64,000 bases of DNA, taken from positions 18,109-82,108 of the forward strand of contig JBHELK010000119.1 in assembly GCA_046263085.1 (NCBI GenBank), given 5' to 3'. Both the position numbers and the translations under genes were made by a program. This stretch comes from Actinomycetota bacterium (lineage in GTDB: Bacteria; Actinomycetota; UBA4738; JACQTL01). Below, one piece after another: positions 12,345 through 53,731 of this stretch; the stretch's first letter is position 1, and each line of letters starts with the position of its first letter. The notes beneath the pieces are model-generated. The model made no database searches. It was not told the origin of the DNA and worked only from the letters and a program-made list of their open reading frames with translations.

Positions 12345-12353
12345 GGACCCACG

Positions 12354-29786: not shown

Positions 29787-29800
29787 TGTGCAGGTGCACA
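29787..29800. promoter_or_regulatory. Palindromic putative operator, site 1: TGTGCAGGTGCACA
   Basis: Perfect inverted repeat in the divergent intergenic region, 57 nt upstream of the minus-strand gene start at 29730 and 109 nt upstream of the plus-strand gene start at 29909. Confidence 0.6.
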
Positions 29801-29829
29801 GTTCTGCGCCACACGAACACTCGCTGACT

Positions 29830-29843
29830 TGTGCATGTGCACA
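29830..29843. promoter_or_regulatory. Palindromic putative operator, site 2: TGTGCATGTGCACA
   Basis: Second perfect copy lies 43 bp from site 1 in the same divergent promoter region. Confidence 0.6.
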
Positions 29844-29908
29844 GAGGAATGCGCACTTCGCTCCGCGTAGTCCATCTCGAGACATCCATCCGCCATACAG
29901 GAGAGACC

Positions 29909-35017: not shown

Positions 35018-35028
35018 CCGAGATCCTC

Positions 35029-36435: not shown

Positions 36436-36521
36436 GGGAGTCCTCCTTGTTCGATGTCGATGAAGCTTCTGAGGGGCTGACCTATCGATTCGCAGGTGCG
36501 GGGCCGAATCCTCCCTGCCAT

Positions 36522-38609
36522 CTAGGAGGGCCCCACGGACGAGAAGCCGCAGCTCGTGCCGAAGCAAGCCCGGGCGAAGACCACGGAACCGGAGGGAACC
36601 GCGCCCACGGCGCCGGTGAAGGATCCGTCGGCGGCAACGACCGCCGGGGTGCTGTAGCTCACCTGAGCGGGATCCGTCCCGGCCGGCGCCACGCCGAGGC
36701 TGACGGTGCGGTCTGGGATGGCGTACGAGGTCCAGGTGGCGCCGTCGGCCATGTTGCCGACCGTCTGCCCGCCGACCGTCGTCCCGAAGCTCGTCACGCC
36801 CGCGCTGTATGCGGCGTAGATCGAGGGGGTGGTGACCCCGGTGGTCTGGGTCGTGGAGATCACCGCCCCGGGCTTGATGTCCGGGGCGAAGGACGCGCCG
36901 ATCGGGACGCGCACGGTGATGGTGTTCGAGGCGGTGTCGAACGAGCCGTCGAGCCACGCGAGGTGGGAACAGTTGTTGACGGCGACGAGGGTTGCGCAGT
37001 TGCCGCGGAGCCGGAACGACCGGCCGGCGTGGGTGACGGCTCCCTCGGGGTCGTCCACCGTGCCGGTGCTGCCGACGTTCGAGAGCTTCGCCTGCACCTG
37101 GTACTGCTTGCCGTTCACGAGGAACGCCCACGTGTACACGAATGTCTCCGGCGCCGTCGCCGGCACCGTCGGGTCCGGACCCGGCAGCTTGCTCACCTTC
37201 CAACGGAACTGGAGGTACGGGAGTTGGGCCTCCGGCTGGGAAACGCTCGCCTCGGTGAGGTCCGTACCGTCCTGCGCCCCAGTGGTGGGCTCGAGGGCGC
37301 CGTCGCCTGCGGGGTCGGTTGCCGCCACCACCGGCGCGGTCTCGCCGGCGAACCCGGCGGTCCCGCTCACATTCCCCGCGGCCGATGCGACGAGCGAGGT
37401 GACGCCGTTGGCGGCTGCCGGATCGCGGGGCAGGGGCCCGTTCCACTTCAGGACGTCGAACCCTCGCGTGTAGTCGACCACGTAGACCACGCGGTCCGTG
37501 ACCCAGTGCGCCGCGGACGCCCAGCTGGCGAAGGACTGGAAGAACCCCACGTTGGTGAGCTTGCCGTTCCCGTTCACGTAGAAGAACCGGGTTCCGTGGT
37601 CGTAGTACGCCTGCGCGAAGATCCCGCCGTTGTGGAAGGACGGGCTCGCCTCGAGCCAGTGCGCAGAGCACCCGGCGCCGTCCGCGGGGGTGTTCCCGTC
37701 GAGCATGTAGCCGTTCCTGGTCTGCCACCGGTCGGCCCTGCTGTACGTGCCGCCCTGCCAGCCGGTCATGTCGTAGACGTACGTCGAACCGTTCCCTGTG
37801 CCGTTGGCGCCGCAGCGCCCCGTCAGGTTGGTTTCCGTTCCCACGAGCATGAACCGGTCGGTGGCCTGGTTCGCCCAGCTCGTAGAGTGCATGTATTCGC
37901 TGGTCTTCTGCCCTGCGCCCATGCACGCGAGCTTCTTGGGATGGGCCGGGTCGGTGGTGTCGAGGATGGCGCCCGGGCAGTTCGCGCCGCTCCCGGAGGA
38001 CACGACGACGATGCCGGGGGCGTCCTCGCGGACGTCGTGGCCCGCGGACACACCGGCGAGGGTTGCCCAGTTCCCGACGAGGGCCGGCTTCGTGGGGTCG
38101 TGGAGATCGATGATGTTGCCGCTCGAGCCGTACAGGTAGGTGCAGTCCGCCACGCAGGTCATGGTGTGCTGCGCCAGGCCCGAGACGGAGGCGACCTCGA
38201 CGGGCTTCGTCTTGTCGGTGACGTCGTAGATGTGCAGGAAGTTCTGTCCCGGGCCCACGATCGGGACGTTCCCGGTCTGCGAGTACACGAGGATCTTGCC
38301 GTTCGTGGCGACGTCCTCGTTCTCGTACTGGCTCGGGACCGGCGTGATGCTCACGAGCTGTGGGTCCTCGGGGTTCGAGGCGTCGTAGATGGAGATGCTC
38401 CGCCAGCTGGTGATGTAGAAGTAATGCCCCACGAGCTTGGCTCCGGTGGCGCCGTACACCTCGAATGGCACGAACCGAACGTGCTCGACCCACGACGACG
38501 CAACGCCCTGCGCCGGCGCGTCCGGCCCCGCCCGCCCGATGCCGGGTGACATCACGGCGACGGTGAGCGAAAGCGACACGACCGTCGCGAGGATCCTGAG
38601 CTTCTTCAT
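36522..38609 (-). CDS. Secreted LVIVD beta-propeller protein with a C-terminal ~300 aa conserved module of unknown function ('ACFGxxCG' module)
   Basis: Signal peptide MKKLRILATVVSLSLTVAV. The N-terminal propeller carries blades ISIYDASNPEDP, LHIYDVTDKTKP, IIDLHDPTKP and ILDTTDPAHP. The C-terminal module reads QYQVQAKLSNV...RLRGNCA...LAWLDGSFD...VRVPIGASFAPDIKPGAV...ARACFGTSCG. Confidence 0.75.
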   Translation of the reverse strand: MKKLRILATVVSLSLTVAVMSPGIGRAGPDAPAQGVASSWVEHVRFVPFEVYGATGAKLVGHYFYITSWRSISIYDASNPEDPQLVSITPVPSQYENEDVATNGKILVYSQTGNVPIVGPGQNFLHIYDVTDKTKPVEVASVSGLAQHTMTCVADCTYLYGSSGNIIDLHDPTKPALVGNWATLAGVSAGHDVREDAPGIVVVSSGSGANCPGAILDTTDPAHPKKLACMGAGQKTSEYMHSTSWANQATDRFMLVGTETNLTGRCGANGTGNGSTYVYDMTGWQGGTYSRADRWQTRNGYMLDGNTPADGAGCSAHWLEASPSFHNGGIFAQAYYDHGTRFFYVNGNGKLTNVGFFQSFASWASAAHWVTDRVVYVVDYTRGFDVLKWNGPLPRDPAAANGVTSLVASAAGNVSGTAGFAGETAPVVAATDPAGDGALEPTTGAQDGTDLTEASVSQPEAQLPYLQFRWKVSKLPGPDPTVPATAPETFVYTWAFLVNGKQYQVQAKLSNVGSTGTVDDPEGAVTHAGRSFRLRGNCATLVAVNNCSHLAWLDGSFDTASNTITVRVPIGASFAPDIKPGAVISTTQTTGVTTPSIYAAYSAGVTSFGTTVGGQTVGNMADGATWTSYAIPDRTVSLGVAPAGTDPAQVSYSTPAVVAADGSFTGAVGAVPSGSVVFARACFGTSCGFSSVGPS

Positions 38610-38628: not shown

Positions 38629-40683
38629 TCAGGGCGCGACCGAGCGGTATCCGCAGCTCGCGCCGAAGCAGGCCTGGGCGAACACCTGGGAACCTGCCGG
38701 GACGCTCGGCACCTGGCCGGTGAAGGTCCCGTCGTCGTTCAGCGTGACCGGGATGGTGTAGTCGACCGTCGATGGATCCGTCCCGGCGGGAGCGACGCCC
38801 AGCATCACGGTGGCCTTCGGGATCGTGTACTGATCCCAGTCGATGTCGTCCGCGACGGTGGTGTTCGTCACCAGCACCGAGTTCGCGGCGTACAGCGTCG
38901 GCAGGCTGGCCGACGGCGTGAGGACCGCGCCGGGCTTGATGTCGGGGGCGTACGAGGCGCCGACCGGCACGCGGACCATGATGGTCTTGTTCGGGACGTC
39001 GATCGAGCCGTCGAGCCACGCGAGCGTCGGGCAGTTGTTGAGCACCCCGACCACCGCGCAGTTCCCGCGGAGCCGGAAGGAACGGCCGAGCCTCGTCACG
39101 GGGCTCGTGGGGTCGTCGGCGAGGACGGTGCTGGCGATGTTCTCGACCTTGGCCTGCACGGCGTAGTCCTTGTTGTTCGCCTTGAAGTACCAGTTGTAGG
39201 AGGTGGTCTCGGGGATCGCCCCGGACGTGGTGTCCGGCAGCGGGAGGTTCGTCACCTTGAACCGAAGCTCCACGTACGGCAGTTGCGCCTGCGGCTGTGA
39301 GAGGCTCGCCTCCACGAGGTCGGCGCCGGCCGCGTCGGAGACCTGCGCAACCCCTGGGCCGTCACCCACGGCGTCGGTGAAGGTGGTCGGGCTCGTCTCG
39401 CCGGCGAAGGTGGCGGTACCCGTGACCGTGGCCCCGCTGCCCGAGGCCGTCGCCACGAGCTGGGTCACGGCGTTGTCGGCCGCCGCGTCGTGCGGCAGGG
39501 GCCCGTTGTACTTCAGGACGTCGATGCCCCTCGTGTAGTCCACCGCGTACACGACACGGTCGGTGATCCAGTGCACTGCCGACGTCGACCCGCCGAACGG
39601 GGTGAAGAACCCGACGGGTGTGAGCTTGCCGTTGCCGTTGACGTAGAAGAACCGGGTCCCGTGCTCGTAGTAGCCCTGGGCGAAGATGCCGCCGTTGTGG
39701 AAGGAGGGCGCCGCCTCCAGCCAGTGAGCGGAGCATCCGAGCACGTTCACCGGGGGGTTCCCGTCGAACAGGTAGCCGTTCTTGCCCTGCATGCGGTCCG
39801 TGCGGTGGTACGTGCCGCTCTCCCACCCGGTGGTGTCGTAGACGTAGGTGGCGCCGTTGCCGGTGGCGTTCGCGCCGCACCGGGTCTTCTCGTTCGTCTC
39901 CGAGCCGACCAGCATGAATCGGTCGGTGGCGTTGTTCGGCCACGTTTCCGAGTGCATGTACTCGGACGTCCTCTGGGTGCTGGCGATGCACGAGAGCTTC
40001 ACCGGGTTCACCGGGTCCGTGACGTCGAGGACGGCGCCCGGACAGTTCTGTCCGCTGCCCGAGGAGACGACCACGATCCCCGGCGCGTCCTCACGGACGT
40101 CGTGGCCCCCGGAGACGCCCGCCTTCTGGGCCCAGTTGCCGACGAGCGCCGGCTTCGTGGGGTCCCGCAGGTCGATGATGTTGCCGCTCGAGCCGTAGAG
40201 GTAGGTGCAGTCGGCGACGCACGTCATCGTGTGCTGAGCGATGCCGGCGACGTTTGCGATCATGACAGGGTTCGCCTTGTCGGTGACGTCGTAGATCCGC
40301 AGGTGGTTCGACCCGCCGCCGGCGAGGGATGCGCTGGTCTCGCTGAAGACCAGGACCTTGCCGTTCGTGGCGACATCCTCGTTCTCGAACCGGTGCGGGT
40401 CGCTCGGGTCCTCCTTGGCGAAGGGCACGATGCTCACGAGCTGAGGGTCCTCGGGGGTCGACGTGTCGTAGATCGACAATGACCTCCACCCCGTGACGTA
40501 GTAGTAGTGGCCGACGAGGCGGGCGCCGGTGGCGCCGTACACCTCGAACGGAACGAACTTCACGTGCTCGACCAGGGTCGAGGTGACGCCCTGGGCCGGG
40601 GCATCCGGGCCGGCCGCCACGACCTGCGAGCCGGTGGGTACCGCCACGAGAGCGAGGGTGAGGATCAGCGCCAGTCGTCGCAT
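38629..40683 (-). CDS. Secreted LVIVD beta-propeller protein with the C-terminal 'ACFGxxCG' module (tandem paralog of 36522-38609)
   Basis: Signal peptide MRRLALILTLALVAVPTG. The protein is collinear with, and highly similar to, the downstream paralog throughout. C-terminus ...AQACFGASCGYRSVAP. Confidence 0.75.
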   Translation of the reverse strand: MRRLALILTLALVAVPTGSQVVAAGPDAPAQGVTSTLVEHVKFVPFEVYGATGARLVGHYYYVTGWRSLSIYDTSTPEDPQLVSIVPFAKEDPSDPHRFENEDVATNGKVLVFSETSASLAGGGSNHLRIYDVTDKANPVMIANVAGIAQHTMTCVADCTYLYGSSGNIIDLRDPTKPALVGNWAQKAGVSGGHDVREDAPGIVVVSSGSGQNCPGAVLDVTDPVNPVKLSCIASTQRTSEYMHSETWPNNATDRFMLVGSETNEKTRCGANATGNGATYVYDTTGWESGTYHRTDRMQGKNGYLFDGNPPVNVLGCSAHWLEAAPSFHNGGIFAQGYYEHGTRFFYVNGNGKLTPVGFFTPFGGSTSAVHWITDRVVYAVDYTRGIDVLKYNGPLPHDAAADNAVTQLVATASGSGATVTGTATFAGETSPTTFTDAVGDGPGVAQVSDAAGADLVEASLSQPQAQLPYVELRFKVTNLPLPDTTSGAIPETTSYNWYFKANNKDYAVQAKVENIASTVLADDPTSPVTRLGRSFRLRGNCAVVGVLNNCPTLAWLDGSIDVPNKTIMVRVPVGASYAPDIKPGAVLTPSASLPTLYAANSVLVTNTTVADDIDWDQYTIPKATVMLGVAPAGTDPSTVDYTIPVTLNDDGTFTGQVPSVPAGSQVFAQACFGASCGYRSVAP

Positions 40684-40710: not shown

Positions 40711-42279
40711 CTATGCGACGACGTTCTGGGTCACGGTCACGGGCTGGTAGGCGTCGTCGCCGGCCCAGGTCGCGGTGACCTGGTGAGGGCCGGCGGGAAG
40801 AGCAAGCGGAGCTGAGAACGTGCCGTCCGCCGCGGTGGTCGCGGTGACCGACGTGCTCCCGGAGCTCACCGTCAGGGTGATCCCGGCGAGGGGCTTGTTG
40901 ACCCACCCGAGGTAGGTCCACACGGCGTAGCGGTCGAGCTTGCCGGTGATGGCCCCGCCGGTGGCGGCCGCGTTCACCTGGAGGCGGGCCACCTTCTTCG
41001 GCATCGCTCCGGTGTAGGTGAAGACGTCCATCCCGCGGGTGATGTCCTGCGTGAAGACGTACCGGTCGAATTTCGGATCGTCGAAGCGGGTCCACTTCGA
41101 GGACCACGTGTTGGCGCCCTCCGGCAGGAAGTTCCCAACCGTGTTGCCCCACGTGGTGGGCCCGCCGAACGTCGTGCCCTTGAACTCCTGGTACTCACCG
41201 CCGGAGGCCTTCGTCGGGAACTGCATGTCGGCGACGAACGTGCCCGCCGAGTAATGGGCCACCGACATCAGGAACCGCTCCGCCTGGAACGTGAGCACGT
41301 GGATCGTGCAGTTGCCCCACTGCCGCTGCGCGGTGGGGTCGGTGAGGCTGTAGAACGGCGCGAACCAGTGCCCGATCTCCTTCGGGTTGCTCAGGCTCGC
41401 CCCCGGGATGTACTTGCCGCTGATGTCGTAGATGTGGGCGCCGCCGCCCGGGCAGGTTTCATTGGTGAGGCCGCCGCCGCGCTCGTCGGTGAGGACCACG
41501 AACGATGAGTCCGGCGAGGGGTCGGCCTGGTGCCCGATCGAGACGTTCCCGTCGTGGACGTTCTTGATGATGGTGGGCTTCGCCGGGTCCGAGAGGTCGA
41601 CGATCTGCAGGTTGGTGCTCGACTGAGGGCACGCCGAGTAGCCGATCGTCGGGTTGTTCGGATCGACCGTGAGGTCGTGGCCACAGATCTGCGGCGCCTG
41701 CCCCAGGACCTTCGGGTTCCTCGCATCCGAGTAGTCGACGATGTAGGTGGGGAGCAGCGTGTAGAAGTACTGGTCGTTGATGATCGTCACGTTGTGGGCG
41801 CCGTCCACGCCCTCGAAGTGCGACAGCAGCTGCGGATTGGCCACATCGGTGATGTCCACGATGTCCACACCGATACCGTTCGTCCCGCCACCGTGGTCGA
41901 CGGTCGAACCGAGGTTGTCGGTGGCGAGCAGCACGATGTTGCGCCGCGGGTTCACCTGGATGTCGCCCTCCCAGTTGAATCCTGGATCGACGAAAGCGCC
42001 GGCGATCAGCGGCAGGTCCGGATTGGTGATGTCGATGATGTTGAACCCGTGGCCCATGTCGCCGACCACGGCGTAGCGCTTCAGCGCCCCGTCGGACAGC
42101 TTGCGCTCGAAGAACTCGATGTCGCTGCCGACATCGGCCGGGACGTTCCACTTCCAGTCCATGTTGTGCTTGCCCAGGGCACCGGCGGCGGGAATGACGG
42201 CCCCGGCCGGCTGGCCGGCGAACGTCGCAGTCAGGATGGCCGCTGCGACGAATGCGAGTGCTGTCTTCCTCAAGGTCAT
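40711..42279 (-). CDS. Secreted LVIVD beta-propeller protein with C-terminal Ig-like/big domain
   Basis: Signal peptide MTLRKTALAFVAAAILTATFAG. Blades include FNIIDITNPDLP, VDIVDITDVANP, LQIVDLSDPAKP and AHIYDISGK. The C-terminus has a Thr-rich beta domain. Confidence 0.75.
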   Translation of the reverse strand: MTLRKTALAFVAAAILTATFAGQPAGAVIPAAGALGKHNMDWKWNVPADVGSDIEFFERKLSDGALKRYAVVGDMGHGFNIIDITNPDLPLIAGAFVDPGFNWEGDIQVNPRRNIVLLATDNLGSTVDHGGGTNGIGVDIVDITDVANPQLLSHFEGVDGAHNVTIINDQYFYTLLPTYIVDYSDARNPKVLGQAPQICGHDLTVDPNNPTIGYSACPQSSTNLQIVDLSDPAKPTIIKNVHDGNVSIGHQADPSPDSSFVVLTDERGGGLTNETCPGGGAHIYDISGKYIPGASLSNPKEIGHWFAPFYSLTDPTAQRQWGNCTIHVLTFQAERFLMSVAHYSAGTFVADMQFPTKASGGEYQEFKGTTFGGPTTWGNTVGNFLPEGANTWSSKWTRFDDPKFDRYVFTQDITRGMDVFTYTGAMPKKVARLQVNAAATGGAITGKLDRYAVWTYLGWVNKPLAGITLTVSSGSTSVTATTAADGTFSAPLALPAGPHQVTATWAGDDAYQPVTVTQNVVA

Positions 42280-42288: not shown

Positions 42289-43989
42289 TTACGTCTGGAC
42301 GGATTGGGTGACGCTGGCCTGCTGGAACGTGTCGTCGCCCGTCCAGGTCACGGTGACCTGGTGCGACCCGGCGGAGAGTCCGAGGTTCGCCGAGAACGTG
42401 CCGTCGTCGGCGGTCGTGGCCATCACGGTGACGCCGCCGCCCGTGACCTCCACGCTCCGTCCGGCGAGGGACTTGTTGACCCATCCCTGGTACGTGAGGA
42501 CGGCGTAACGATCGAGCTTGCCGGTGGCCACGCCTCCGGGCGCGGCAGGATCGACAGCGAGGCGCGCAAGTTTCTTCGGCAGCGGCCCCGTGTACTTCAG
42601 GATGTCGAACCCCCGTACGAGCCCGTTCGTGAAGACGTAGCGACCCGTGTCCGGATCGGCGGCGGAAGCGTCGAACGGCCACCACTGCGACGCGTTCACG
42701 AAGTCGCCCTCGGCGAGGAAGTTGCCCGTGGTGTTGCCCCAGGTGGTGGGCCCGAGCCCCCGGACGGCGCTGCACGGAGGGGTGACCTCCGGGCGGCAGG
42801 TCCAATCCCGCTTGGGGTTTCTATTCCATTCGGTATAGAGACCACCGCTCGACTTCGTGGCGGCAGTCGGATCGCCCACCCAGCTTCCGAGCGTGTAAAC
42901 ACCGGCGGTGAAGATCATCCGCTCGGCCTGGAACTGCCAGCTGTGGGTCGTGCAGCTGGCCCAGTTCGGATGGTTCGAATCCGGGTCGGGATCAGTGGAC
43001 TCGATCGTGTTGAAAGGCGCGAACCACTTCCCCATCTTGATCGGGTTCGTGAGACTCGCCCCGGGCATGTACTTCCCGCTGATGTCCCAGAAGTGGATTC
43101 CTCCACCCGGGCACTGGAAGTACGTGTAGCCGGTCGCGGGCCCGATCCGATAGTCGGTGACGCCGATGAACGAGGAATCCGCGGATGGATAGACCTCGTG
43201 GGCGAGGCTGATCTCCGGATCTTGCTTCTGGACGATGACGACCGGATGGGCCGGATCCGTGGTGTCGAGGATCCCCCACTTGGCGGGCTGCGCGCAGAAG
43301 CCGACGTAGGTCCGGCCCGGGATGTTCGGATCGGGATAGAACTCGTGGCCGCAGAGGTTGTTCAAGCCCGCGTCTGCGAGCTTCGGCTTCGCCGGGTCGG
43401 CCACGTCGATGATGTGCGTGGGAAGGGTGGTGTACAGGTATCGGTCGTCGATCCACCGGATGGTGTGCGGCCCGTTCGAGTCGCCCTGCCCCAGAGCCGC
43501 CACCTGGCCGCGGTACACCGGATTCGTGACGTCGGAGATGTCGACGATGTCGACGCCGTTCGAGCCCCCGTGGCCGAGGTTCGGGTCGGTCGGAGGCCAC
43601 GCGGATCTGCCCGGTGCCTCGATGGAGTACGCCACGAGCTTGCGGGTGGGATTCACCGAGACCCACGAGTGGTAGTTGAAGCCCACCGTCACGTAGCGGC
43701 CCACGGTCGAAGGCTCAGCCGGGTCGGTGATGTCGATGATGTCGAACCCGAAGTTGTGAGCGACCACGGCGTACCGGGAAAGCGAGCCGTTCGACTCCTG
43801 CCGCTCGAAGAAGTCGAGCGCGTTGCCGCCCGAGCTGACCTGGTTGTTGACCCAGGTCACGTTCTTCGAGCTCACGATGCCCTCGGCGGGAAGACCGGCC
43901 GGCTGTGCGCCGGCGGGGATCGCCGCCGTGCCGCCGAGCATGGCGGCGGCGAGCGCCGCGACCCCCAGCTTGCGCACCGAGCCCGTCAT
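42289..43989 (-). CDS. Secreted LVIVD beta-propeller protein with C-terminal Ig-like domain (tandem paralog of 40711-42279)
   Basis: Start trimmed to MTGSVRKLGVAALAAAMLGGTAAIPAGA (signal peptide). The protein is collinear with its paralog (FDIIDITDPAEP, VDIVDISDVTNP, IHFWDISGK). The ATG overlaps the upstream stop in an ATGA arrangement. Confidence 0.75.
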   Translation of the reverse strand: MTGSVRKLGVAALAAAMLGGTAAIPAGAQPAGLPAEGIVSSKNVTWVNNQVSSGGNALDFFERQESNGSLSRYAVVAHNFGFDIIDITDPAEPSTVGRYVTVGFNYHSWVSVNPTRKLVAYSIEAPGRSAWPPTDPNLGHGGSNGVDIVDISDVTNPVYRGQVAALGQGDSNGPHTIRWIDDRYLYTTLPTHIIDVADPAKPKLADAGLNNLCGHEFYPDPNIPGRTYVGFCAQPAKWGILDTTDPAHPVVIVQKQDPEISLAHEVYPSADSSFIGVTDYRIGPATGYTYFQCPGGGIHFWDISGKYMPGASLTNPIKMGKWFAPFNTIESTDPDPDSNHPNWASCTTHSWQFQAERMIFTAGVYTLGSWVGDPTAATKSSGGLYTEWNRNPKRDWTCRPEVTPPCSAVRGLGPTTWGNTTGNFLAEGDFVNASQWWPFDASAADPDTGRYVFTNGLVRGFDILKYTGPLPKKLARLAVDPAAPGGVATGKLDRYAVLTYQGWVNKSLAGRSVEVTGGGVTVMATTADDGTFSANLGLSAGSHQVTVTWTGDDTFQQASVTQSVQT

Positions 43990-45764
43990 CGGTCCGCCGG
44001 AGCCACGATCACGGATCCCTGCATAGACGTGTCGGTCGCCGACGACGTCGACGTATAGACCCACGTGCCGGACTCGTCCTCGAAATCAGCGGAGTGCGAC
44101 TTGCGCGGCGGAATGTCGCCGTTGGAGTTGATCTCGTCCCCCGGGAGGATGACCGAGCCCTCGGTCGTGACGACCACGGCCCGCTCTGCCGTTACGTTGT
44201 GGGGGACGGTGTCCTCGTTCACCCACAGGACCTTGACGTCGCGCGGGATCGTGATGACCTGCGGCACGAACTGACCGTCGATGATCTCCACGGTGTACGT
44301 GTCCGGCGTGTCCTGGACGAACGTGACCCGATAGACCGAGCCGTGGAAATCGGCGACGTACATGGCGCCGTCCGGTCCGAACACCACGTCGATGGGGGCG
44401 CCGCCCGTCATGAACGCCCGGGTCCAGGCCACGGTGCCGTCCTCGTTGAAGTGGACCTGTTGGATCTTGTGGCCGCTCGGCTCGGGAGGAACGGCGTTCG
44501 TGTTCCAGATGCTGCCCCACTCGGCCACGAAGAGGTCGCCGTCGTAGCGCTCCGGGAAGTCGTCGCCGCGCTCGAACGCGAGGCCGGACGTCCCGCTGTG
44601 CGCGCTGAGGAACTTGACGGGGCGCAGGATGTGGTCGATCGGAGTCCGAGGCGGAGCCGCTGGGCAGTGGCCGAACTTGGCGATCGTCGCCTCGTTCAGG
44701 TTGTCGTCCGGGTCGTAGATCTCGGGGTGCTCATGGCCACCCGACGGCTGCGGCCAGGCGTTGACGTGCTGGCCGTAGAGGCAGGACGGGAACCCCGCGT
44801 CGTCGATGACCGGGCCATAGATCGGGTTGCCCTGTGGGTCGGTACCGACGACGTGCTGGTCACAGATGTTGGTTCGGTACAGGGGCTCGTTGGAGGCGGG
44901 GTTGTCCGAGCCGTTCATCGGCGTGTAGAGCGAGCAGGGATCGCCGGGCTGGGTGTCGACGTCGTAGATGTTGCGGAAGCCCCGGGCGGCGAGGACCTCG
45001 TCGTCGTCCAGAACGCCGGGGTCGTCGTAGCCGTTGGCGTCGACGGTGACGTCCTTCAGCAGGTCGACGTCGCGCCACGCGGGATTGACGCGCAGGATCG
45101 ATCCCGTCCAGGGCTGGACCTCCTGGGTCGGGCATGCGAGCGGCGAGGCCGGCTCGGGCCCGCATTCGGTTCCGTCGTCGGTGGCACTGCCCGTCGCGAC
45201 GTACAGCATGCCGTCAGGGCCGAACACCATGCCGTTCGTCTGATGGCGGCCGTTCGGGATGTCCTTGAGGATCGTCGCTCGCGTCTCATACGTGCCGTCG
45301 CCATCCGCGTCGCGCAGCGCGAGGATGCTCCCCTTGTACGCGGTCGTGTCGTTGTCGGAGACGTACATCGTGCCGTCGGGCCCGAAGACCATCCCGATGA
45401 CCTGGCCGAAGCCGTCGGCGACCGGGATCGGAGCCCCGCCCGCCACCACGCCGTCGACCACGTCGAAGGAGTAGACGGCGCCGTTCGAGAGCGCCTGGGG
45501 CCCGTCGCCGGCTGCAACGCCCTGCACCGACGTGACGAAGAGCTTCCCGCCCGGTCCGAACGTGAGGCTGGTGGCGAGATCGCCCGGGGGAAGCTGGGCG
45601 AAGGTGGAGACGCCGAACCCGACCGGCGGAACGAGGGCCCCGGCCAGCTCGACGGGATCGTGGGCCTGGGCCGGTGCCTGGACGAGACCGGGACCGGCGA
45701 GGGTCACGAGGATCACGATCGCTCGGGCGAGTCCGCGAAACCGCGTGCGTCCGTTCCCCTTCAC
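43986..45764 (-). CDS. Secreted soluble glucose/sorbosone dehydrogenase-like (SGDH/PQQ-dependent-like) beta-propeller protein with C-terminal cupredoxin-like domain
   Basis: GTG start at 45764, preceded by GGGAGGAG. Signal peptide (M)KGNGRTRFRGLARAIVILVTLAGPGLVQAPAQA. Repeated GMVFGPDGTMYVSDND / GMVFGPDGMLYVATGS / VVFGPDGAMYVADFHG blades are typical of the GSDH family. The C-terminal ~110 aa have a plastocyanin-like pattern (VPHNVTA...), but the Cys ligand appears to be replaced. Confidence 0.7.
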   Translation of the reverse strand: MKGNGRTRFRGLARAIVILVTLAGPGLVQAPAQAHDPVELAGALVPPVGFGVSTFAQLPPGDLATSLTFGPGGKLFVTSVQGVAAGDGPQALSNGAVYSFDVVDGVVAGGAPIPVADGFGQVIGMVFGPDGTMYVSDNDTTAYKGSILALRDADGDGTYETRATILKDIPNGRHQTNGMVFGPDGMLYVATGSATDDGTECGPEPASPLACPTQEVQPWTGSILRVNPAWRDVDLLKDVTVDANGYDDPGVLDDDEVLAARGFRNIYDVDTQPGDPCSLYTPMNGSDNPASNEPLYRTNICDQHVVGTDPQGNPIYGPVIDDAGFPSCLYGQHVNAWPQPSGGHEHPEIYDPDDNLNEATIAKFGHCPAAPPRTPIDHILRPVKFLSAHSGTSGLAFERGDDFPERYDGDLFVAEWGSIWNTNAVPPEPSGHKIQQVHFNEDGTVAWTRAFMTGGAPIDVVFGPDGAMYVADFHGSVYRVTFVQDTPDTYTVEIIDGQFVPQVITIPRDVKVLWVNEDTVPHNVTAERAVVVTTEGSVILPGDEINSNGDIPPRKSHSADFEDESGTWVYTSTSSATDTSMQGSVIVAPADR

Positions 45765-45829
45765 GACGGGCTCCTCCCAAAGACACGACCGTCCCGGGGA
45801 CCTTTCGAGGGGAACGGGCCGGCTACCTT

Positions 45830-45843
45830 TGTGCAAGTGCACA
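45830..45843. promoter_or_regulatory. Palindromic putative operator, site 3: TGTGCAAGTGCACA (extended form TTGTGCA-AG-TGCACAA)
   Basis: Perfect 16-bp inverted repeat 66 nt upstream of the GTG at 45764. This GTG heads the apparent seven-gene minus-strand operon running 45764 to 33881. Confidence 0.6.
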
Positions 45844-45856
45844 AGCGAGGGCCGGC

Positions 45857-47491
45857 TCAGACCTGGATGGTGGTGACCCTCGTGGCGCAGTTCGCACCGA
45901 AGCAGGCCCTCGCCCACACGTCCCAGGACCCGGGACCGGGCGCGGACAGGACCCCGGCGAAGCGCCCGGTGGAGTCCGCGGTCGTGGTGACGGCGAACAT
46001 CACCTGGCCGAGCGGCGTCCCGGCCGGCGCGATCCCGATCGAGACCTGCCGATCCGGGATCCGGTAGGTGAACGACGTGTCGCTGCCTCCCCACGCCGCC
46101 TGGTCGGCCGTCACCGTTTCGGCACCGGGCGCGATCTGGTACCCGGTCTGGATCGTGGAGAGGTCGCCGGCGGGGCTCTGGTTCCTCGTCAGCACGGCCC
46201 CGGGCACGATCTCGGGCGTGGCGCCGAGCGGCACCTTCACACGGATCGTGTTCGTGGCGACGTCGAAGGAGCCGGTGAGCCAGGCCATGTGCGTACAGGT
46301 GCCGGCGGGGGGGACCGTCGTGTCGATGCACTCCCTGAGCTCGAAGGCATGGCCCGTATTGCCGACTCTGCCCTGAGGATCGGACCGGTCCGTTGCCGAT
46401 AGGTCCGACAGTTTCGCCTGCACCTGGAATTGTTTGCCGCCCGTCCGGAACGGGATCGTGTAGCGAACAGCTTCAGGGAAGCTGCCCGACTCGGGCAATC
46501 CCGTGACGTGCCACTCGAAGAAGACCGAGGGGATGGCGGGATCCGGCTGATAGGCGCTCGCGCCGACCAGGTCGACGCCCGTGTCCTGGGCAGTCTGAGC
46601 GGTGCCGGGCGCGTCACCCGCCGGATCCTGCGCGAGGGATACGGGCGACTCGCCCGCGAACACCGCGCCCCCGGACACGGAGACCTGCGACCCGGATGCG
46701 GTTGCGTTCAGCGAGGGTACCGATGTCGAGGACGACCCAGGCGCAAGGACGCGGACCACGCCGGCATGGCCTCCTCCCCCGGCAGTGCCGTGAACCTTGC
46801 AGTAGTAGAGGTAGACGCCCGGTTTCAGGAAGGTGTGGGAGTACGTCTCTCCCGGCTGCCAGCAGACCTGGGCCGCCGTGGGGCACTGCGGGCTGGAGTC
46901 CCAGGACCCGTCGCTGGCGGTGACGGAGTGCGCCACCTGGCCCGTGTTCCGCCACTCGACGGTGGTTCCCGCCGGTACGGTGAGGTCCTTCGGAGCGAAG
47001 AAGTTGTCTCCGGCGTTCACCTCGATGTCGCCGCCGGACTCCGGCACGGGGGCCGGCCGCGGCAGGATCTGCAGCGAGCCCGTCATGTACGGGTGGATCG
47101 TGCAGATGAACGTGTAGAGCCCTGGGGGCACCTGCTCGACGGGCACCGGGGCGCTCTGACTCACGCCGACGAGGTCGCTGATGAACCAGGGTTGCCCGTC
47201 CGGCCGATGTTCAAGTGACTCGAGGTTGTGAAGGTCACCGTCGAGATTGGTGTGAACCAGGCTGTCCCCCTCGACGATCTGCAGCGGCGGCAAGGGGGCG
47301 ATGTGCGTGTCCCCGGGTACGTACGTGTAGTTGTCGGTGAGGATCTGGTGCGTGGTGGTGTCGCTGCCGGTGGGACTCGAGACGACCGCCGCCGATCCCG
47401 GACCGCCCGCCCAGGCGCGGGCCGACGTCACCGCTCCGGGAACGCCGAGGGCGATCGCGAAGGCAACGACGAGCCGCAACGTCCTCACCAC
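45857..47491 (-). CDS. Secreted protein with two cupredoxin (type-1 blue copper) domains and the C-terminal 'ACFGxxCG' module
   Basis: GTG start at 47491 or 47488, preceded by GGGAGGTG. Signal peptide VVRTLRLVVAFAIALGVPGAVTSARAWA. First cupredoxin: H...YTFICTIHPYM (Cys-His-Met ligand spacing). Second: AHSVT...YLYYCKVHG. The C-terminus (QFQVQAKLSDLS...THMAWLTGSFD...RVKVPLGATPEIVPGAVL...ARACFGANCATRV) is homologous to the module in 36522 and 38629. Confidence 0.7.
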   Translation of the reverse strand: MVRTLRLVVAFAIALGVPGAVTSARAWAGGPGSAAVVSSPTGSDTTTHQILTDNYTYVPGDTHIAPLPPLQIVEGDSLVHTNLDGDLHNLESLEHRPDGQPWFISDLVGVSQSAPVPVEQVPPGLYTFICTIHPYMTGSLQILPRPAPVPESGGDIEVNAGDNFFAPKDLTVPAGTTVEWRNTGQVAHSVTASDGSWDSSPQCPTAAQVCWQPGETYSHTFLKPGVYLYYCKVHGTAGGGGHAGVVRVLAPGSSSTSVPSLNATASGSQVSVSGGAVFAGESPVSLAQDPAGDAPGTAQTAQDTGVDLVGASAYQPDPAIPSVFFEWHVTGLPESGSFPEAVRYTIPFRTGGKQFQVQAKLSDLSATDRSDPQGRVGNTGHAFELRECIDTTVPPAGTCTHMAWLTGSFDVATNTIRVKVPLGATPEIVPGAVLTRNQSPAGDLSTIQTGYQIAPGAETVTADQAAWGGSDTSFTYRIPDRQVSIGIAPAGTPLGQVMFAVTTTADSTGRFAGVLSAPGPGSWDVWARACFGANCATRVTTIQV

Positions 47492-49818
47492 GGGACACCT
47501 CCCTGGATCCTCGGATGCAGGACCACCTTGTTCGGGTCCCACGGGCTCGATCCCCGGCCCTGTTCGAGGATCGTGAAGTGCTCGCCGGTCACCCGTGTCG
47601 CGGTCCCGGTGACCTCGAAGTACGTGTAGGACGCGTTGTTGCCGTCCGTGGTCTCGAGGATGTTGTTCTTCGGGTCCGCGGTGAGCCGCACCACGTAGCG
47701 CCCGTCCCCATTCGCCGCGAAGTTGACGTAGTTGCCGACCCGCTGCCACCGGTAGACGTCCCCCCAGCCGCCCGAGAGCCCCACCATGCTCTGGGACCCG
47801 GACAGGCCGCACCCCGCGACCTTCGAGCTGTCGGTGCGCTGATCGAACGAGTACCAGTTTCCGAAGGACTCGTTCGCAGGGAAGTAGCCGATCTTGCGGC
47901 CCACCCCCGAGGAAGCCAGCGTGCCCGCAGTCGCGTCGGTGACCTTGAAGAGCTCCAGCTTGACGATGTCCTTGACGTGGAGGTGGGCGTGGGTCTCGTG
48001 CCACACCATCTCCCCGGCAGGGCGCGTCTCGAAGGCCGGGGTCTCTCCCGGTCGCTCGACGCACTGGAACGCCGGTCCCGGACCGGCGGTGGTGGCGTTG
48101 CCGTTCCAGTACGCGTCGAACTGACCGTGTCCGACGTTCGATAACCCGAAGGAGAACCGAAGGCAACGCGTGTGGGGGCTGTCCGGGTCCGGGCCATCGG
48201 AGATCAGCTCCTGGGTGGTGTTGTCGCCGAACGTCTCGTCCGGCGAACAGGACGCGGGGTGAACGCCGGCGACGTCGGCCGGGGGGTTCGCCGAGTCCGG
48301 CGCGAAGAAGGGGCCGTTCAGCGGATTCACCGGCGCTGCGAACCCGAGGTCGTACGGCGGGGTCGGCTGGAGGTCCGGGAGCAGCCGGCCGCTCGCGTCC
48401 GGGGCGAAGACGGGGATCTGCGCCTCGAGCTTCGCGCGCATCTGGAACCGGGTGGGGGCGTGCACCGAATACGGGTGCACCAGGATGTCGTAGACGCCCA
48501 CCGGCGGGTTCGCCGTGAAATCCTCCCGGTTGAAGGCGGTGGGATTCGTCGCATCCGTGTGCGCGGGCCCGCTCGGGGGCGTGACCCGGAACGCGAACCC
48601 GTCGCTCCGGGCGGGGACGTCGATGGCGATCCGCAGCCTCGCCGCTCCGGGGGTGTCCACCCTGAGCTTGTAGTCGAAGCATGGGGTGTTGTCGCAGCTC
48701 TGGATGTTGGCGTTGTTGGGCAGGTTGTTGGCGTAGGGGAGCTGGTCGCCGACCTTGCCGCCCGCCCAGAAGACGTAGCTGTCGCTCGCCCGGTCCGTGA
48801 GGCGGAGCGTGGCGACGAGGCCGTCGTCGACCCTCGTGACGCCGCCGAGGCTCCGGATGCCGCAGTTGGCGCCGAAGCAGGCCTTGGCGAAGACGTCGAA
48901 GCTCCCCGGCGCGAACCCGGCCGTGGAGATGGATCCGGAGAACGAGCCGTCGCCGGCGAGCGTCGCCGGGGTCGAGAAGTCGACGCCCGAGGGATCGGTC
49001 CCGGTCGGGCCGATGCCCAGCGTCACCTGCTTGGTCGGGATGGTGAAGGCATAGCTCGCGGACGACGGGTCGCCGAACGAGGCGGTGTCGTTCGCCGCGC
49101 CGACGAAGCCGAGCTGGACGCCGGCCATGATGAGGTTGAGGTCGTCGCTCGTGGCGTTGTTGCGCTCCAGCACCGCGCCGGGAACGAGTTGGGGCGCTGC
49201 GGGCGAGCCCATCGGGACGGAGACCGAGACCGTGGAATAGACGGTGTCGACGGAGCCGGTGAGCCACGCGAGGTGCTGACAGCTGGCGCTACCGGTTCCC
49301 ATGAAGTTCGGCATGCAGTTGCCGAGGAGCTCGTAGGCGCCGTCGATGTGACCGGACCCGCCCTGCGGATCCGTGGCCAGGTTCGAGAACTTGGCCTGAA
49401 CCTGGTACACGGCCTCGCCGGCCTTGAACGGGAAGGTCAGCCGAGTGGCCTCCGGGATCTGCCCGCTTGGCGGGATGCCCGCGAGCTGCCACTGCACGAG
49501 CAGCTGCGGCGTGTCCGGGTCGGGCACGGAGATGTCCGCGCCGATGAGGTCGATGCCGTGCTCGCCGGTGCCGTTGAAGTCACCGACGTTCGGCGTGACC
49601 TGGGCGTCGTTCCCGGGGTCGTCCGCCACCTCGACCGGCCGCTGGCCGCCGAAGACCGCCGACCCCGAGATGGCCATTTCGCCGGAGGTGGGCGTCCCGG
49701 ATACCGCCGTCACCGCGCTCGGTACCGTCGTCTTGTCGCCCGCATCGGCGGACACCGCCATCGCAGGCACGAGTCCCAGCAGCGTGAACGGCACGACGAG
49801 CAGGACGAGCTTCCGCAT
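47485..49818 (-). CDS. Secreted protein: N-terminal 'ACFGxxCG' module fused to a C-terminal domain with a lysyl-oxidase-like His-rich copper motif
   Basis: ATG at 49818 with a GGAGGT RBS. Signal peptide MRKLVLLVVPFTLLGLVPAMAVSADA. The N-terminal half (VYQVQAKFSNLATDP...CQHLAWLTGSVDT...VSVPMGSPAAPQLVPGAVL...FAKACFGANCGI) matches the shared module. The C-terminal half contains MVWHETHAHLHVKD, which resembles the WEWHSCHQHYH copper site of lysyl oxidase. That assignment is tentative. The stop overlaps the downstream start (GTGGTGA). Confidence 0.6.
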   Translation of the reverse strand: MRKLVLLVVPFTLLGLVPAMAVSADAGDKTTVPSAVTAVSGTPTSGEMAISGSAVFGGQRPVEVADDPGNDAQVTPNVGDFNGTGEHGIDLIGADISVPDPDTPQLLVQWQLAGIPPSGQIPEATRLTFPFKAGEAVYQVQAKFSNLATDPQGGSGHIDGAYELLGNCMPNFMGTGSASCQHLAWLTGSVDTVYSTVSVSVPMGSPAAPQLVPGAVLERNNATSDDLNLIMAGVQLGFVGAANDTASFGDPSSASYAFTIPTKQVTLGIGPTGTDPSGVDFSTPATLAGDGSFSGSISTAGFAPGSFDVFAKACFGANCGIRSLGGVTRVDDGLVATLRLTDRASDSYVFWAGGKVGDQLPYANNLPNNANIQSCDNTPCFDYKLRVDTPGAARLRIAIDVPARSDGFAFRVTPPSGPAHTDATNPTAFNREDFTANPPVGVYDILVHPYSVHAPTRFQMRAKLEAQIPVFAPDASGRLLPDLQPTPPYDLGFAAPVNPLNGPFFAPDSANPPADVAGVHPASCSPDETFGDNTTQELISDGPDPDSPHTRCLRFSFGLSNVGHGQFDAYWNGNATTAGPGPAFQCVERPGETPAFETRPAGEMVWHETHAHLHVKDIVKLELFKVTDATAGTLASSGVGRKIGYFPANESFGNWYSFDQRTDSSKVAGCGLSGSQSMVGLSGGWGDVYRWQRVGNYVNFAANGDGRYVVRLTADPKNNILETTDGNNASYTYFEVTGTATRVTGEHFTILEQGRGSSPWDPNKVVLHPRIQGGVPW

Positions 49819-49871: not shown

Positions 49872-49887
49872 TTGTGCATCGGCACAA
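49872..49887. promoter_or_regulatory. Palindromic putative operator, site 4: TTGTGCA-TC-GGCACAA (one mismatch from the perfect palindrome)
   Basis: Located in the divergent region, 54 nt upstream of the ATG at 49818 (minus strand) and about 90 nt upstream of the S8 protease ATG at 49978. Confidence 0.55.
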
Positions 49888-49977: not shown

Positions 49978-51561
49978 ATGACTGCTCCGACACGCCCATC
50001 CCTGTTCCGGGTGGCCGCCGTGCTGTTCGCCCTGTACGTCGGCGTCGCGGGCCCGGTGCCGGCCGGATCGGCCCACGCCGGCCGAGGGATCGCTCGCTCG
50101 ACAGGCGCCGGCTTCGTGGACCCCACCCTGATCCGAGAGGTGGCAACGGGCCTCCCTGCCACGGTCCTGATCGGTTTCGACGAGCGCCGGACGACCGGCC
50201 CCCAGCTGGTCTCGTACCTGCGCGACCAGGGGATCTCCGCGCAGTCGTTCGAGCGGCTTCCGGTGGCCTACGCATGCGCCGGGTCCCTCGCCACGCTGCG
50301 GACCCTGGCCAGCGCCCCCGGAACGCGCTCCCTCTACGCCGACGCCCAGCTCGAGACGGCGCTCGACAAGAGCGTCCCGACCGCCATGAACGGCGATCCG
50401 CACAACGTGTGGGACGGCCTCGGCATCACGGGCAAGGGCGTGGGTCTCGCGGTCATCGACACCGGGGTCGATGCGACGCACCCCGACCTCCAGTACGGCC
50501 TGCGGACCAAGCTGAACGTCCGGGTCATCGTGGGGCACCGCGACCTGCTGCCGCCGCCGGCCGACCCCTGCGTGCAGGACACGTACACGGCGTCCCTGCA
50601 GGACAGCGAGATCAGCAGCGGCCACGGGACCCATATGGCGAGCGTGGCGGCCGGCGACGGCACGGTCTCGGGCGGCCGCTACACCGGTGTGGCACCCGAG
50701 GCGACCATCATGGGCGTGGCCATCGACGACACGGTCACGCCGAACGTCCGCACCGATGCCACGGGGACCCCGACGGGTCTCTCACTCTTCGGGGCCATCG
50801 CCGGCCTCAACTACGTCGCGCTGAACGGGATCCAGGACGGTGTCAGCCCCGCGATCATGCAGGTCAAGGTGATCCTGGCGGGATGGGTCCAGCACGGGCT
50901 GTACGACCCGTGGCACCCCATGGCCCTCGCGATCCACGACATGTCCGAGCTCGGGATCATCACCGTGTTCCCCGCCGGGAACGACGGCTCGGACACGAGC
51001 GACTGCTCCACGGCCGACACCTGTCACTTCAACATGTGGGGCGCCTCACCCGACGCGGTGACGGTCGCGGCCACGCCGAAGACCTCGCGGACGATCCTCG
51101 AGAGCTACTCCTCCCGCGGCGATCCCCTGGAGCGCACGTTCCACGACGCCACCTTCCGGTACTGGCCCCTCGTGTCGGCACCGGGCACCAACGTGGTCGC
51201 GGCCCGGAGGCCGGGCATCGCGCCCTTCCTGCAGCCGCCGGGATCGTTCCTCGGCGCCCACGGCGACGGCTCCGTGGGCCTCGACCGCCGCTACGTCGCC
51301 CTCACCGGCACCAGCGTGTCGGCGGCGCACGTGGCGGGGGCGGTGGCCCTCATGCAGCAGGCCGCCGTGCAGGCCAAGGGGTGCTACCTCACGACAGCGC
51401 AGGTCAGGGACATCCTGGGGTCCACGGCCACGTCGATGCCGGGCTACGCGCAGTGGCAGGTGGGCCGGGGCGACGTGAATATCACCGCAGCGGTCCTCTC
51501 GGCCCGCTCGGCCCCCGCCATCCACAACCCCGAACCGTGGATGTGCCCGGGCTCGGCATAA
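49978..51561 (+). CDS. Secreted subtilisin-like serine protease (peptidase S8)
   Basis: Catalytic triad motifs AVIDTGVD (Asp), SGHGTHMAS (His) and LTGTSVSAAHVAGAVAL (Ser). Start trimmed to MTAPTRPSLFRVAAVLFALYVGVAG (signal peptide). Confidence 0.85.
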   Translation: MTAPTRPSLFRVAAVLFALYVGVAGPVPAGSAHAGRGIARSTGAGFVDPTLIREVATGLPATVLIGFDERRTTGPQLVSYLRDQGISAQSFERLPVAYACAGSLATLRTLASAPGTRSLYADAQLETALDKSVPTAMNGDPHNVWDGLGITGKGVGLAVIDTGVDATHPDLQYGLRTKLNVRVIVGHRDLLPPPADPCVQDTYTASLQDSEISSGHGTHMASVAAGDGTVSGGRYTGVAPEATIMGVAIDDTVTPNVRTDATGTPTGLSLFGAIAGLNYVALNGIQDGVSPAIMQVKVILAGWVQHGLYDPWHPMALAIHDMSELGIITVFPAGNDGSDTSDCSTADTCHFNMWGASPDAVTVAATPKTSRTILESYSSRGDPLERTFHDATFRYWPLVSAPGTNVVAARRPGIAPFLQPPGSFLGAHGDGSVGLDRRYVALTGTSVSAAHVAGAVALMQQAAVQAKGCYLTTAQVRDILGSTATSMPGYAQWQVGRGDVNITAAVLSARSAPAIHNPEPWMCPGSA

Positions 51562-53269: not shown

Positions 53270-53731
53270 CTAGCCGGAGAAACCCCCCGCGGGCGGCGGT
53301 GGCTGCGCGGCTCCACCGGGGGCCGTTCCGCCTTGGCCCGCCCCGGCACCGGCGGCGTAGCGCTCCCAGATCTTGTTCAGGCCGCTCTGGTAGTACGCCG
53401 TGTGGAGGCTGTACACGAGGTAGCACAGGATCCCGAGCACGGGAGAGACCTGCTGCTGCACCCCCGCCTTCTCCTGCATGCGATCGATGCGCTCGCCCGT
53501 GCGGTAGATGCTCACGAACGGCGGGATGATGAGGATGAATCCGGGGATCAACGCGAGCACGGAGACCCCGGGCTTGATGTTCTCGTCCCCCAGGTACTGC
53601 TTGGCTTCCTTGTTGACCTTGTAGTACCAGACGAAGCCGTAGATCGACAGCGTGATGAACGTGAGGCCCCACACGCCGAGTGGGCTGCGCTTCTTGAACT
53701 CGTACCCGCCGATGCTGAGCGTCTCTGCCAT
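53270..53731 (-). CDS. DUF4234-like small membrane protein
   Basis: GLTFITLSIYGFVWYYKVNKE and the ...ILIIPPFVSIYRTG pattern are typical of DUF4234. Third-position GC bias is strong. It is the last gene of the purN-purH-folD-metF string. Confidence 0.6.
   Translation of the reverse strand: MAETLSIGGYEFKKRSPLGVWGLTFITLSIYGFVWYYKVNKEAKQYLGDENIKPGVSVLALIPGFILIIPPFVSIYRTGERIDRMQEKAGVQQQVSPVLGILCYLVYSLHTAYYQSGLNKIWERYAAGAGAGQGGTAPGGAAQPPPPAGGFSG

Follow-up and report, generated by a model that had tools for sequence, protein, structure and literature searches.

The described systems closest to the locus considered here are the secreted or periplasmic six-bladed enzymes that use pyrroloquinoline quinone (PQQ), namely the soluble glucose dehydrogenases (sGDH), YliI/Asd, S. 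coelicolor Adh and the AA12 enzymes, together with the PVC-type TIGR02604/DUF7133 proteins, the amicyanin/methylamine dehydrogenase pair, nitrous oxide reductase (N2OR) and the prokaryotic lysyl oxidases (LOX). Cupredoxins are one cited acceptor class for the sGDH-type enzyme family (PMC6657660). The window, a 64,000-nucleotide stretch of a contig from an Actinomycetota metagenome-assembled genome (MAG), carries two genes that bring such a propeller and cupredoxins together. Gene A encodes a propeller with a cupredoxin-fold tail, and gene B, its neighbour on the same strand across a 92-nt spacer, encodes two cupredoxins. An earlier note, made from the letters alone, proposed that the two form an extracellular electron-transfer pair. 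With moderate confidence we favour a different reading, in which A and B belong to two separate, probably co-regulated operons: A would carry a retired cupredoxin and work with a propeller of the LVIVD family, and B would serve a lysyl-oxidase-like enzyme encoded on its other side.

Gene A shares with the PQQ enzymes the six-bladed fold and the extracytoplasmic location, and with the AA12 enzymes an appended electron-transfer domain. The sGDH-like propeller first proposed from the blade motifs is borne out. The motif FGP[DG]G..[YF]V recurs four times (residues 69, 127, 181 and 462), and the Pfam families DUF7133 (1.3e-14; 54.8 bits, cut-off 27) and GSDH (PF07995; 3.1e-7; 30.5 bits, cut-off 25) both match above threshold. 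The GSDH match is limited to residues 134-228 and is outscored by DUF7133, and NCBIfam TIGR02604 reaches 66 bits against a cut-off of 122. The best PDB folds that Foldseek finds for the AlphaFold model (pLDDT 86, pTM 0.84, 66 homologues in the alignment; residues 1-41, the signal peptide region, disordered) are all PQQ enzymes (6i1t, 6jt5, 3a9g, 1c9u and 3das; E 3e-16 to 5e-12), a set that comprises AA12 pyranose dehydrogenases, the aldose sugar dehydrogenases of P. aerophilum and S. coelicolor and the sGDH of A. calcoaceticus. Streptogramin lyase and hedgehog-interacting protein appear among the further matches. In contrast to the PQQ enzymes, with which it is only 14-16% identical, gene A has DUF7133 rather than GSDH as its best Pfam family, large Cys-containing insertions and an appended cupredoxin that lacks the copper ligands. 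Its six Cys residues are compatible with an extracytoplasmic, disulfide-bonded protein. The PVC-type proteins have the same Pfam propeller sub-family and likewise place a small electron-carrier domain after the propeller, but their carrier is a C-terminal CxxCH heme domain, whereas that of gene A, which contains no CxxCH motif, is an inactivated cupredoxin.

The catalytic His of the sGDH group, in an H-x4-6-FGPDG..Y motif, and the Arg-Asn pair are also present in gene A. When the gene A family profile is aligned with the E. coli aldose sugar dehydrogenase YliI (hhalign probability 86%), His174 (45243-45245) falls on the His of the YliI motif N-H-F-G-G-R and Arg264-Asn265 (44970-44975) on the motif G-I-R-N-P-Q-G, and the same residues align to the His and Arg-Asn of 2ISM. 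All 66 homologues keep H174, R264, N265, N284, D287, H389 and D459. In sGDH the His acts as the catalytic base and the two arginines of an Arg-x-Arg motif hold the PQQ carboxylates; we take the sGDH counterparts to be His144 for the base, Arg228/Asn229 for the pair and Arg406/Arg408 in the last blade. This clamp was not found in gene A: the R-I-R-D-V of the last YliI blade is aligned with Ala456-Pro457-Ile458-Asp459-Val460, and all 66 homologues have hydrophobic residues at both 456 and 458. Judged from these alignments, gene A has retained the active-site core of the PQQ sugar dehydrogenases and lacks the Arg-x-Arg cofactor clamp, and it is most aptly classed as a DUF7133-type propeller that carries a pseudo-cupredoxin.

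The tail of gene A had been described as plastocyanin-like in fold but possibly without copper, and both parts of that description hold. AlphaFold models residues 489-591 as a confident all-beta domain, and the family profile aligns with amicyanin over the whole tail (E 1.9e-7); amicyanin is the best match of this tail and of the first domain of B alike (E ~2e-7). Gene A by itself gives weak matches to Pfam Copper-bind and Cupredoxin_1 (residues 487-587), both under their cut-offs. In the profile alignment the amicyanin stretch Y-F-C-T-P-H-P-F-M-R-G lies opposite Y-e-S-t-t-s...M-r-G of the gene A family, which places Ser572 at the ligand Cys and Asp578 at the second His. Among the 66 homologues the first His is kept in 60 and the Met in 59; the Cys column holds Ser in 50 and Cys in 13, and the second-His column holds Asp (29), Glu (8), His (10) or a gap (16). 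A blue-copper (type-1) centre is excluded for the gene A tail on the evidence of these columns.

The same comparison shows that the tail has decayed from a genuine blue-copper domain, because the His-Cys-His-Met set persists in a paralogous clade and in a few close relatives. All ten sequences of that clade (~35-43% identity) read H-C-H-M, P0255 carries the tail motif V-C-S-F-H-P-Q-T-M, and within the close clade P0044, P0047 and P0054 read Y-I-C-S-L-H-P-T/S-T-M. Degenerate-tail and intact-tail copies occur together in four GTDB MAGs (contig pairs L012 and L023, L013 and L019, L017 and L021, L018 and L024); the two types are therefore paralogues, and the copper site was lost after the gene duplication. 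Each of the four Ser codons that were read is a TCN, a single step away from TGC, and they are compatible with one TGC-to-TCC change. The Cys-containing group of P0044, P0047 and P0054 lies inside the Cys-less clade in a neighbour-joining tree, and this nesting hints at several independent losses. Mean column entropy over the 53 Cys-less members is 1.65 in the tail and 1.17 in the propeller, and by this measure the tail is the less constrained and faster-evolving part.

Fusion of a cupredoxin to a propeller of this kind, first taken to be unusual, is not rare. Besides the intact C-terminal domain of the paralogous clade, intact N-terminal cupredoxins occur on distant propellers in Actinomycetota MAGs. 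At seven loci, in MAGs of Mycobacteriales, Frankiaceae, Thermoleophilaceae and Acidimicrobiales, a cupredoxin lies immediately upstream of a propeller of ~30% identity, and in L060 the cupredoxin is fused N-terminally to the propeller with its ligands intact (P-H-N-L and F-F-C-S-I-H-P-M-M). The propeller superfamily is thus linked to cupredoxins again and again, which supports a redox function. The proposal that enzymes of this family reduce cupredoxins has already been published (PMC6657660), and relatives of gene A are auto-annotated as 'glucose/arabinose dehydrogenase/plastocyanin'; the proteins described here are annotated as hypothetical or by domain only. N2OR also places a cupredoxin after a propeller and matches gene A over its whole length in Foldseek (E ~2e-9), but its propeller is seven-bladed with CuZ, its cupredoxin holds binuclear CuA and the TM-score to gene A is only 0.27, so the resemblance is architectural and not homologous in detail. 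A tail-only search of 1.8 billion representatives brought up no new architecture; most matches were repeat proteins with several cupredoxins or fragments of the gene A family. Two small Cys-less proteins (P0286 and P0287) resemble stand-alone cupredoxins by eye.

The neighbours that travel with gene A are an LVIVD gene and a secreted S8 protease rather than gene B. A ends and the LVIVD gene begins in a shared ATGA, and the same 4-nt overlap joins the A orthologue and the LVIVD gene in L003. An LVIVD partner lies downstream of the A orthologue at 11 of 11 loci, immediately after it in L001, L003, L007, L012, L013, L018 and L078 and separated from it by a small stand-alone domain X protein (domain X is described below) in L005, L014, L015 and L016. 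The S8 gene adjoins the A orthologue at all ten survey loci with enough flank, and also at L078. Both partners are 52% identical to their counterparts beside the A orthologue of L001. The LVIVD gene and the S8 protease are, on this synteny, the real conserved partners of gene A. No B-like cupredoxin gene was found at any of the 11 A-orthologue loci, and at the closest of them (L078, 64% identity) the S8 gene lies directly upstream with no oxidase-B insertion.

Eleven LVIVD family members (21-55% identity to the partner of A) share invariant H175, H215, H264 and H349 and three invariant Asp residues. The invariant His residues suggest a metal or catalytic centre; a PDB sequence search with the LVIVD partner returned nothing. 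Eight LVIVD-type paralogues lie in a 16-kb part of the window, four of them listed in Table 1 and a further four at 28234-29730 (-), 29909-31597 (+), 33881-35062 (-) and ~35029-36470 (-). Peptidases of the M28-PKD type recur in L003, L005, L014, L016, L017 and the window. Genes for CopC-CopD fusions stand beside the S8/A/LVIVD module in L001 (6334-8286), L007 (3111-4988 and 6275-8176), L013 (4129-6075) and L018 (6318-8270), which hints that the module is tied to copper supply even where the copper site of A has been lost.

Gene B was said to contain two apparently intact type-1 sites. This is correct for the first domain and only partly so for the second. A Pfam Copper-bind match (4.9e-12) identifies B as a cupredoxin protein, and the profile of domain 1 aligns with amicyanin 1id2 (E 1.5e-7) with all four ligands, H88, C130, H133 and M136, in register. 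The 12 homologues that have this domain all keep H88, C130 and H133, and 11 keep Met136, which is Gln in P0132. Domain 2 matches plastocyanin in phmmer (E 1.6e-9), with invariant H188, C231 and H234 on ligand positions, but the position of the plastocyanin Met is Gly. A conserved His242 (46766-46768) eight residues past H234 is the likely axial ligand, because its column holds Met in P0133 and Gln in P0123. An invariant pair, Cys203 and Cys210 (46862-46885), lies in a loop of this domain. Domain 1 is also 35% identical to the propeller-fused cupredoxin of L060 (E 5e-15).

The idea that B is the partner of A finds no support in the comparison with other loci. B homologues stand beside an oxidase-like gene at four of four other loci (L008, L009, L010 and L077), and no DUF7133 gene was found at any of these, L077 being covered to 154 nt past B. 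The last 7 nt of the oxidase-like gene overlap the start of B in the window, with an identical overlap in L008, L009 and L077, and in P0133 (852 aa) a cupredoxin, domain X and the oxidase domain form one polypeptide. The oxidase-like gene is, by these arrangements, the conserved and translationally coupled partner of B. The closest relative of B, in L077, follows the order S8, oxidase-like gene, B; the 154 nt between B and the end of its contig contain no recognisable A start or palindrome. A gene for a DUF4234 membrane protein lies in the window at 53270-53731 (-), ~1.7 kb past the S8 gene with citrate synthase between, and in L008 (11607-11990) directly after the B homologue. This residual synteny suggests that the oxidase-B operon has a conserved neighbourhood of its own and that the S8/A/LVIVD module has joined that neighbourhood in the window.

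The oxidase-like protein shares with the lysyl oxidases (PMC4448552), including that of Haloterrigena (PMC6452851), the motif W-H-x2-H-x-H-x-H and the Lys and Tyr of the lysine tyrosylquinone (LTQ) cofactor. All 14 family members keep W-H575-x2-H578-x-H580-x-H582, K610 and Y657. The alignment of the family Lys and Tyr with the LTQ-forming 'GHKASF' and 'DMYRH' of LOXL2 is weak (E 0.064), and the window protein itself scores 17.7 bits against PF01186, under the cut-off of 20.4; nine of the 14 members match PF01186, the best at E 1.2e-8. The function of prokaryotic LOX has been described as enigmatic (PMC6452851), and most of these proteins are reported to consist of the LOX domain alone (PMC4448552), whereas the window protein has two extra parts, domain X and a middle domain, and its family is linked to cupredoxins in an operon or by fusion. 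A coupling between oxidase and cupredoxin goes unmentioned in the published survey of these prokaryotic enzymes (PMC4448552).

Domain X is an all-beta module of ~285 aa (pLDDT 89). The window has four copies, 42-45% identical: one each in B and the oxidase-like protein and one at the C-terminus of each of two LVIVD proteins. The domain has two conserved Cys pairs, and an FN3-like sub-domain is its sole recognisable part. It would be an extracellular stalk or association module able to co-localise the proteins that carry it.

A 22-bp palindrome, CCTTTGTGCA-NN-TGCACAAAGG, precedes gene A and the oxidase-B operon, and also the S8 gene and two further propeller genes. The window holds four sites at two mismatches or fewer, all intergenic, where 100 shuffles gave an expectation of 0. 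The copy ahead of A is followed in the B-A spacer by the ribosome-binding site GGGAGGAG, and the sites at 29786 and 29829 lie ~63-72 nt from their respective start codons. The consensus of 21 unique sites is cCCTTTGTGCA-NN-TGCACAAAGGg. In several Actinomycetota MAGs the sites stand mostly ~45-95 nt ahead of genes for secreted propellers, proteases, cupredoxins and oxidase-like proteins, counted from the start codon. They precede A orthologues in L001, L007, L012, L013, L017 and L018, the intact-tail paralogue in L021, oxidase-like genes in L008, L009 and L077, a Copper-bind gene in L008 and LVIVD genes in L006. The sites are enriched in close loci, with 22 in 0.42 Mb, whereas distant propeller loci contain one in 0.76 Mb. 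L003, L005, L010 and L078 lack the palindrome, so the regulon signal is confined to certain lineages. These positions suggest that the palindrome is the operator of one regulon, under which A and the oxidase-B operon would be co-regulated. A PucR-like regulator (GGDEF_2 and HTH_30) is encoded beside the intact-tail paralogue and near palindromes in L006 (13742-14953), L019 (10461-11453) and L024 (2793-3782). It is a candidate binder of the palindrome; no copy was found in the window.

The reading of two separate operons would account for these observations as follows. The ancestral tail would have been a working type-1 copper domain, presumably a built-in electron acceptor, as it still appears to be in the paralogous clade. 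In the gene A clade the change of Cys to Ser and the loss of the second His mean that the tail can no longer act as a blue-copper relay, and it most likely persists as a structural or docking module. Gene A itself would be an extracytoplasmic oxidoreductase made together with, and working with, the LVIVD propeller to which it is coupled by the ATGA. B most likely serves the lysyl-oxidase-like enzyme, as electron acceptor or as copper-handling partner, because it is the second gene of an oxidase-headed operon, supplies two cupredoxins and shares domain X with the oxidase-like protein. A and B would be neighbours here because the oxidase-B operon sits within what is, at other loci, the divergent promoter region between S8 and A. 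Amicyanin is the acceptor of methylamine dehydrogenase, and the pairing of B with a putative LTQ-type quinoprotein is a parallel, although the partner here is LOX-like and not a tryptophan tryptophylquinone dehydrogenase, and B consists of two cupredoxins and a 285-aa beta module.

Several points weigh against this interpretation. The shared palindrome and the likeness of B domain 1 to the propeller-fused cupredoxins would also fit a functional link between A and B. The missing Arg-x-Arg clamp makes the PQQ dependence of gene A uncertain. The neighbour-joining tree does not separate one loss of the copper site from several. Among the 107 tail positions of the 53 Cys-less members, Ser572 ranks 13th in conservation, His522 19th and Met581 24th; these ranks exceed what pure decay would predict and leave room for a residual non-blue metal site. 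Literature searches for DUF7133/TIGR02604 found no characterised member, and those for LVIVD and for LOX with cupredoxin likewise found none.

The alternative that fares best, although we think it unlikely, is the chain first proposed: A would oxidise a sugar or aldose and, its own cupredoxin being dead, pass electrons to the cupredoxins of B in an extracellular redox chain. Its components stand up, in that A is a propeller with a dead tail and B has real cupredoxin sites. A and B are also adjacent on one strand with the same palindromic site ahead of both, the invariant catalytic residues suggest that A is probably still an enzyme in need of an acceptor, cupredoxins are an acceptor class cited for such enzymes (PMC6657660), and the resemblance to the L060 fusion and the seven distant loci with an upstream cupredoxin point the same way. 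The adjacency of A and B, however, recurs at none of the 11 A loci, and the B-homologue loci lack a DUF7133 gene. B is instead coupled translationally to the oxidase-like gene, with a B-like cupredoxin and domain X fused to the oxidase domain in P0133, and A, which stands behind a candidate operator and a ribosome-binding site of its own, is coupled to the LVIVD gene.

We give lower credence to a remodelled tail, in which His522, Asp578, Met581 and perhaps Ser572 would form another metal site, for type-2-like copper or a different metal, with a role in redox chemistry, sensing or delivery. Engineered Cys112 variants of azurin still bind copper. The 53 Cys-less members keep the Ser in 50 cases, the first His in 47 and the Met in 46, an acidic residue occupies the second-His column in 37, and CopC-CopD genes adjoin the S8-A-LVIVD module at four loci. 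But Ser is a poor copper ligand, the second-His column comes no higher than 56th among the 107 tail positions by conservation and is a gap in 16 sequences, the first His is Arg in three members, and the conserved His-Asn and Met may be mere determinants of the fold.

A single copper-linked extracellular oxidative regulon under the palindrome seems to us as doubtful as a remodelled tail. In such a regulon a LOX-like 'LTQ amine dehydrogenase' and propeller A would both feed B, and the four-His LVIVD proteins would be further metal-dependent components. B, held in place by the shared domain X, may then replace O2 as the acceptor of the oxidase, as amicyanin accepts electrons from methylamine dehydrogenase.

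Some six-bladed propeller relatives, such as lyases, lactonases and hedgehog-interacting protein, are not redox enzymes. That gene A likewise acts on a ligand, by binding or cleavage, with no quinone cofactor, within a surface, adhesion and proteolysis repertoire, is very improbable. In favour of this reading, the clamp is absent from all 66 homologues, the window contains no pqq genes, Foldseek matches include streptogramin lyase and hedgehog-interacting protein, the neighbours are S8 and M28-PKD proteases and eight LVIVD-like surface propellers, and the electron-acceptor domain has decayed. Against it, the catalytic His and the Arg-Asn pair are invariant, the best fold matches are all PQQ enzymes, and relatives repeatedly bear intact N- or C-terminal cupredoxins, which would be sensible only for a redox enzyme.

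The features discussed are collected in Table 1. The products of A, B and the oxidase-like gene are identical to NCBI 'Actinomycetota bacterium' MAG proteins with ABR600 locus tags. G+C across the window is 0.65-0.73. From ~28 kb to 51.6 kb the window encodes mostly secreted proteins, with malate and isocitrate dehydrogenases on one side and citrate synthase, folate and purine genes and succinyl-CoA ligase on the other. The TCA-cycle genes mdh (23852-24775), icd (27090-28376) and citrate synthase (51671-52792) form a run that the secreted-protein locus breaks up, and the region ~24000-50000 has a G+C of 0.65-0.69, below the 0.70-0.73 of the flanking housekeeping DNA. Scans of the window with Rfam and for tRNAs gave zero matches. 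A consensus promoter and terminator scan of 42-52 kb gave nothing useful and no terminator between B and A.

Table 1. Positions of the genes, domains and palindromic sites in the window and, where a locus handle is given, in loci of related MAGs.
Feature	Position	Strand	Basis or context
Gene A, 592 aa: Sec-type signal peptide, six-bladed DUF7133 propeller, cupredoxin-fold tail	43986-45764	-	NCBI identity, Pfam, AlphaFold model, Foldseek
Gene A propeller, residues ~45-485	44310-45632	-	hhalign against E. coli YliI, column counts, codon positions
Gene A degenerate cupredoxin tail, residues 486-592	43989-44309	-	amicyanin profile match, family alignment, beta-strand model
Gene A ligand columns: H522; S572 (for Cys); D578 (for His); M581	44199-44201; 44049-44051; 44031-44033; 44022-44024	-	
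ATGA overlap of gene A stop and LVIVD start	43986-43989	-	sequence read, codon check
LVIVD beta-propeller with Ig-like domain, operon partner of gene A	42289-43989	-	Pfam LVIVD 5e-10
Gene B, 544 aa: signal peptide, amicyanin-type cupredoxin, plastocyanin-type cupredoxin, domain X	45857-47491	-	NCBI identity, Pfam, family alignment
B domain 1, residues 46-146: H88, C130, H133, M136; amicyanin-like C-x2-H-x2-M loop	47054-47356	-	profile against amicyanin
B domain 2, residues 152-250: H188, C231, H234; candidate axial H242	46742-47038	-	phmmer, family alignment
Domain X of B, residues 258-544	45860-46720	-	all-beta, ~285 aa, FN3-like sub-domain
Lysyl-oxidase-like protein: signal peptide, domain X, middle beta domain, LOX-like domain	47485-49719 (49749 with earlier ATG)	-	
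Other copies of domain X	~48760-49650 (oxidase-like); 36525-37460 and 38632-39540 (LVIVD proteins)	-	domain X alignment
Secreted S8 subtilase, divergent	49978-51561	+	Pfam S8 4.4e-31
Perfect palindrome TTGTGCA-AG-TGCACAA, candidate operator	45829-45844	.	92-nt B-A spacer, centre ~72 nt upstream of A start
Second palindrome site, one mismatch	49872-49887	.	between divergent oxidase-like and S8 genes
Two palindrome sites	29786-29801; 29829-29844	.	between LVIVD gene 28234-29730 (-) and LVIVD-like and M28-PKD operon 29909-32839 (+)
LVIVD propeller with Ig-like tail	40711-42279	-	Pfam LVIVD
LVIVD propeller with C-terminal domain X	38629-40683	-	Pfam LVIVD, domain X alignment
LVIVD propeller with C-terminal domain X	36522-38609	-	Pfam LVIVD, domain X alignment
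Stand-alone domain X between A orthologue and LVIVD partner	L005 11659-12585; L016 ~11700-12614		
Palindromes at A-orthologue loci	L001 9921; L007 9846; L012 9899 and 5454; L013 7686; L017 3348; L018 9910		
Palindromes at other loci	L006 3919 and 13704; L008 6318 and 7690; L021 2162; L077 ~1775		

If the reading of two separate operons is right, gene A would be a natural case in which a built-in blue-copper relay has been dismantled, Cys to Ser and His to Asp, while the fold was kept. The intact paralogues in the same genomes would then offer a ready comparison for a change of acceptor in extracellular dehydrogenases. The sharply defined operator-like palindrome links propellers, proteases and copper proteins in uncultured Actinomycetota, and this palindrome, together with the coupling of an oxidase to cupredoxins, is a more original lead than the tail of gene A.

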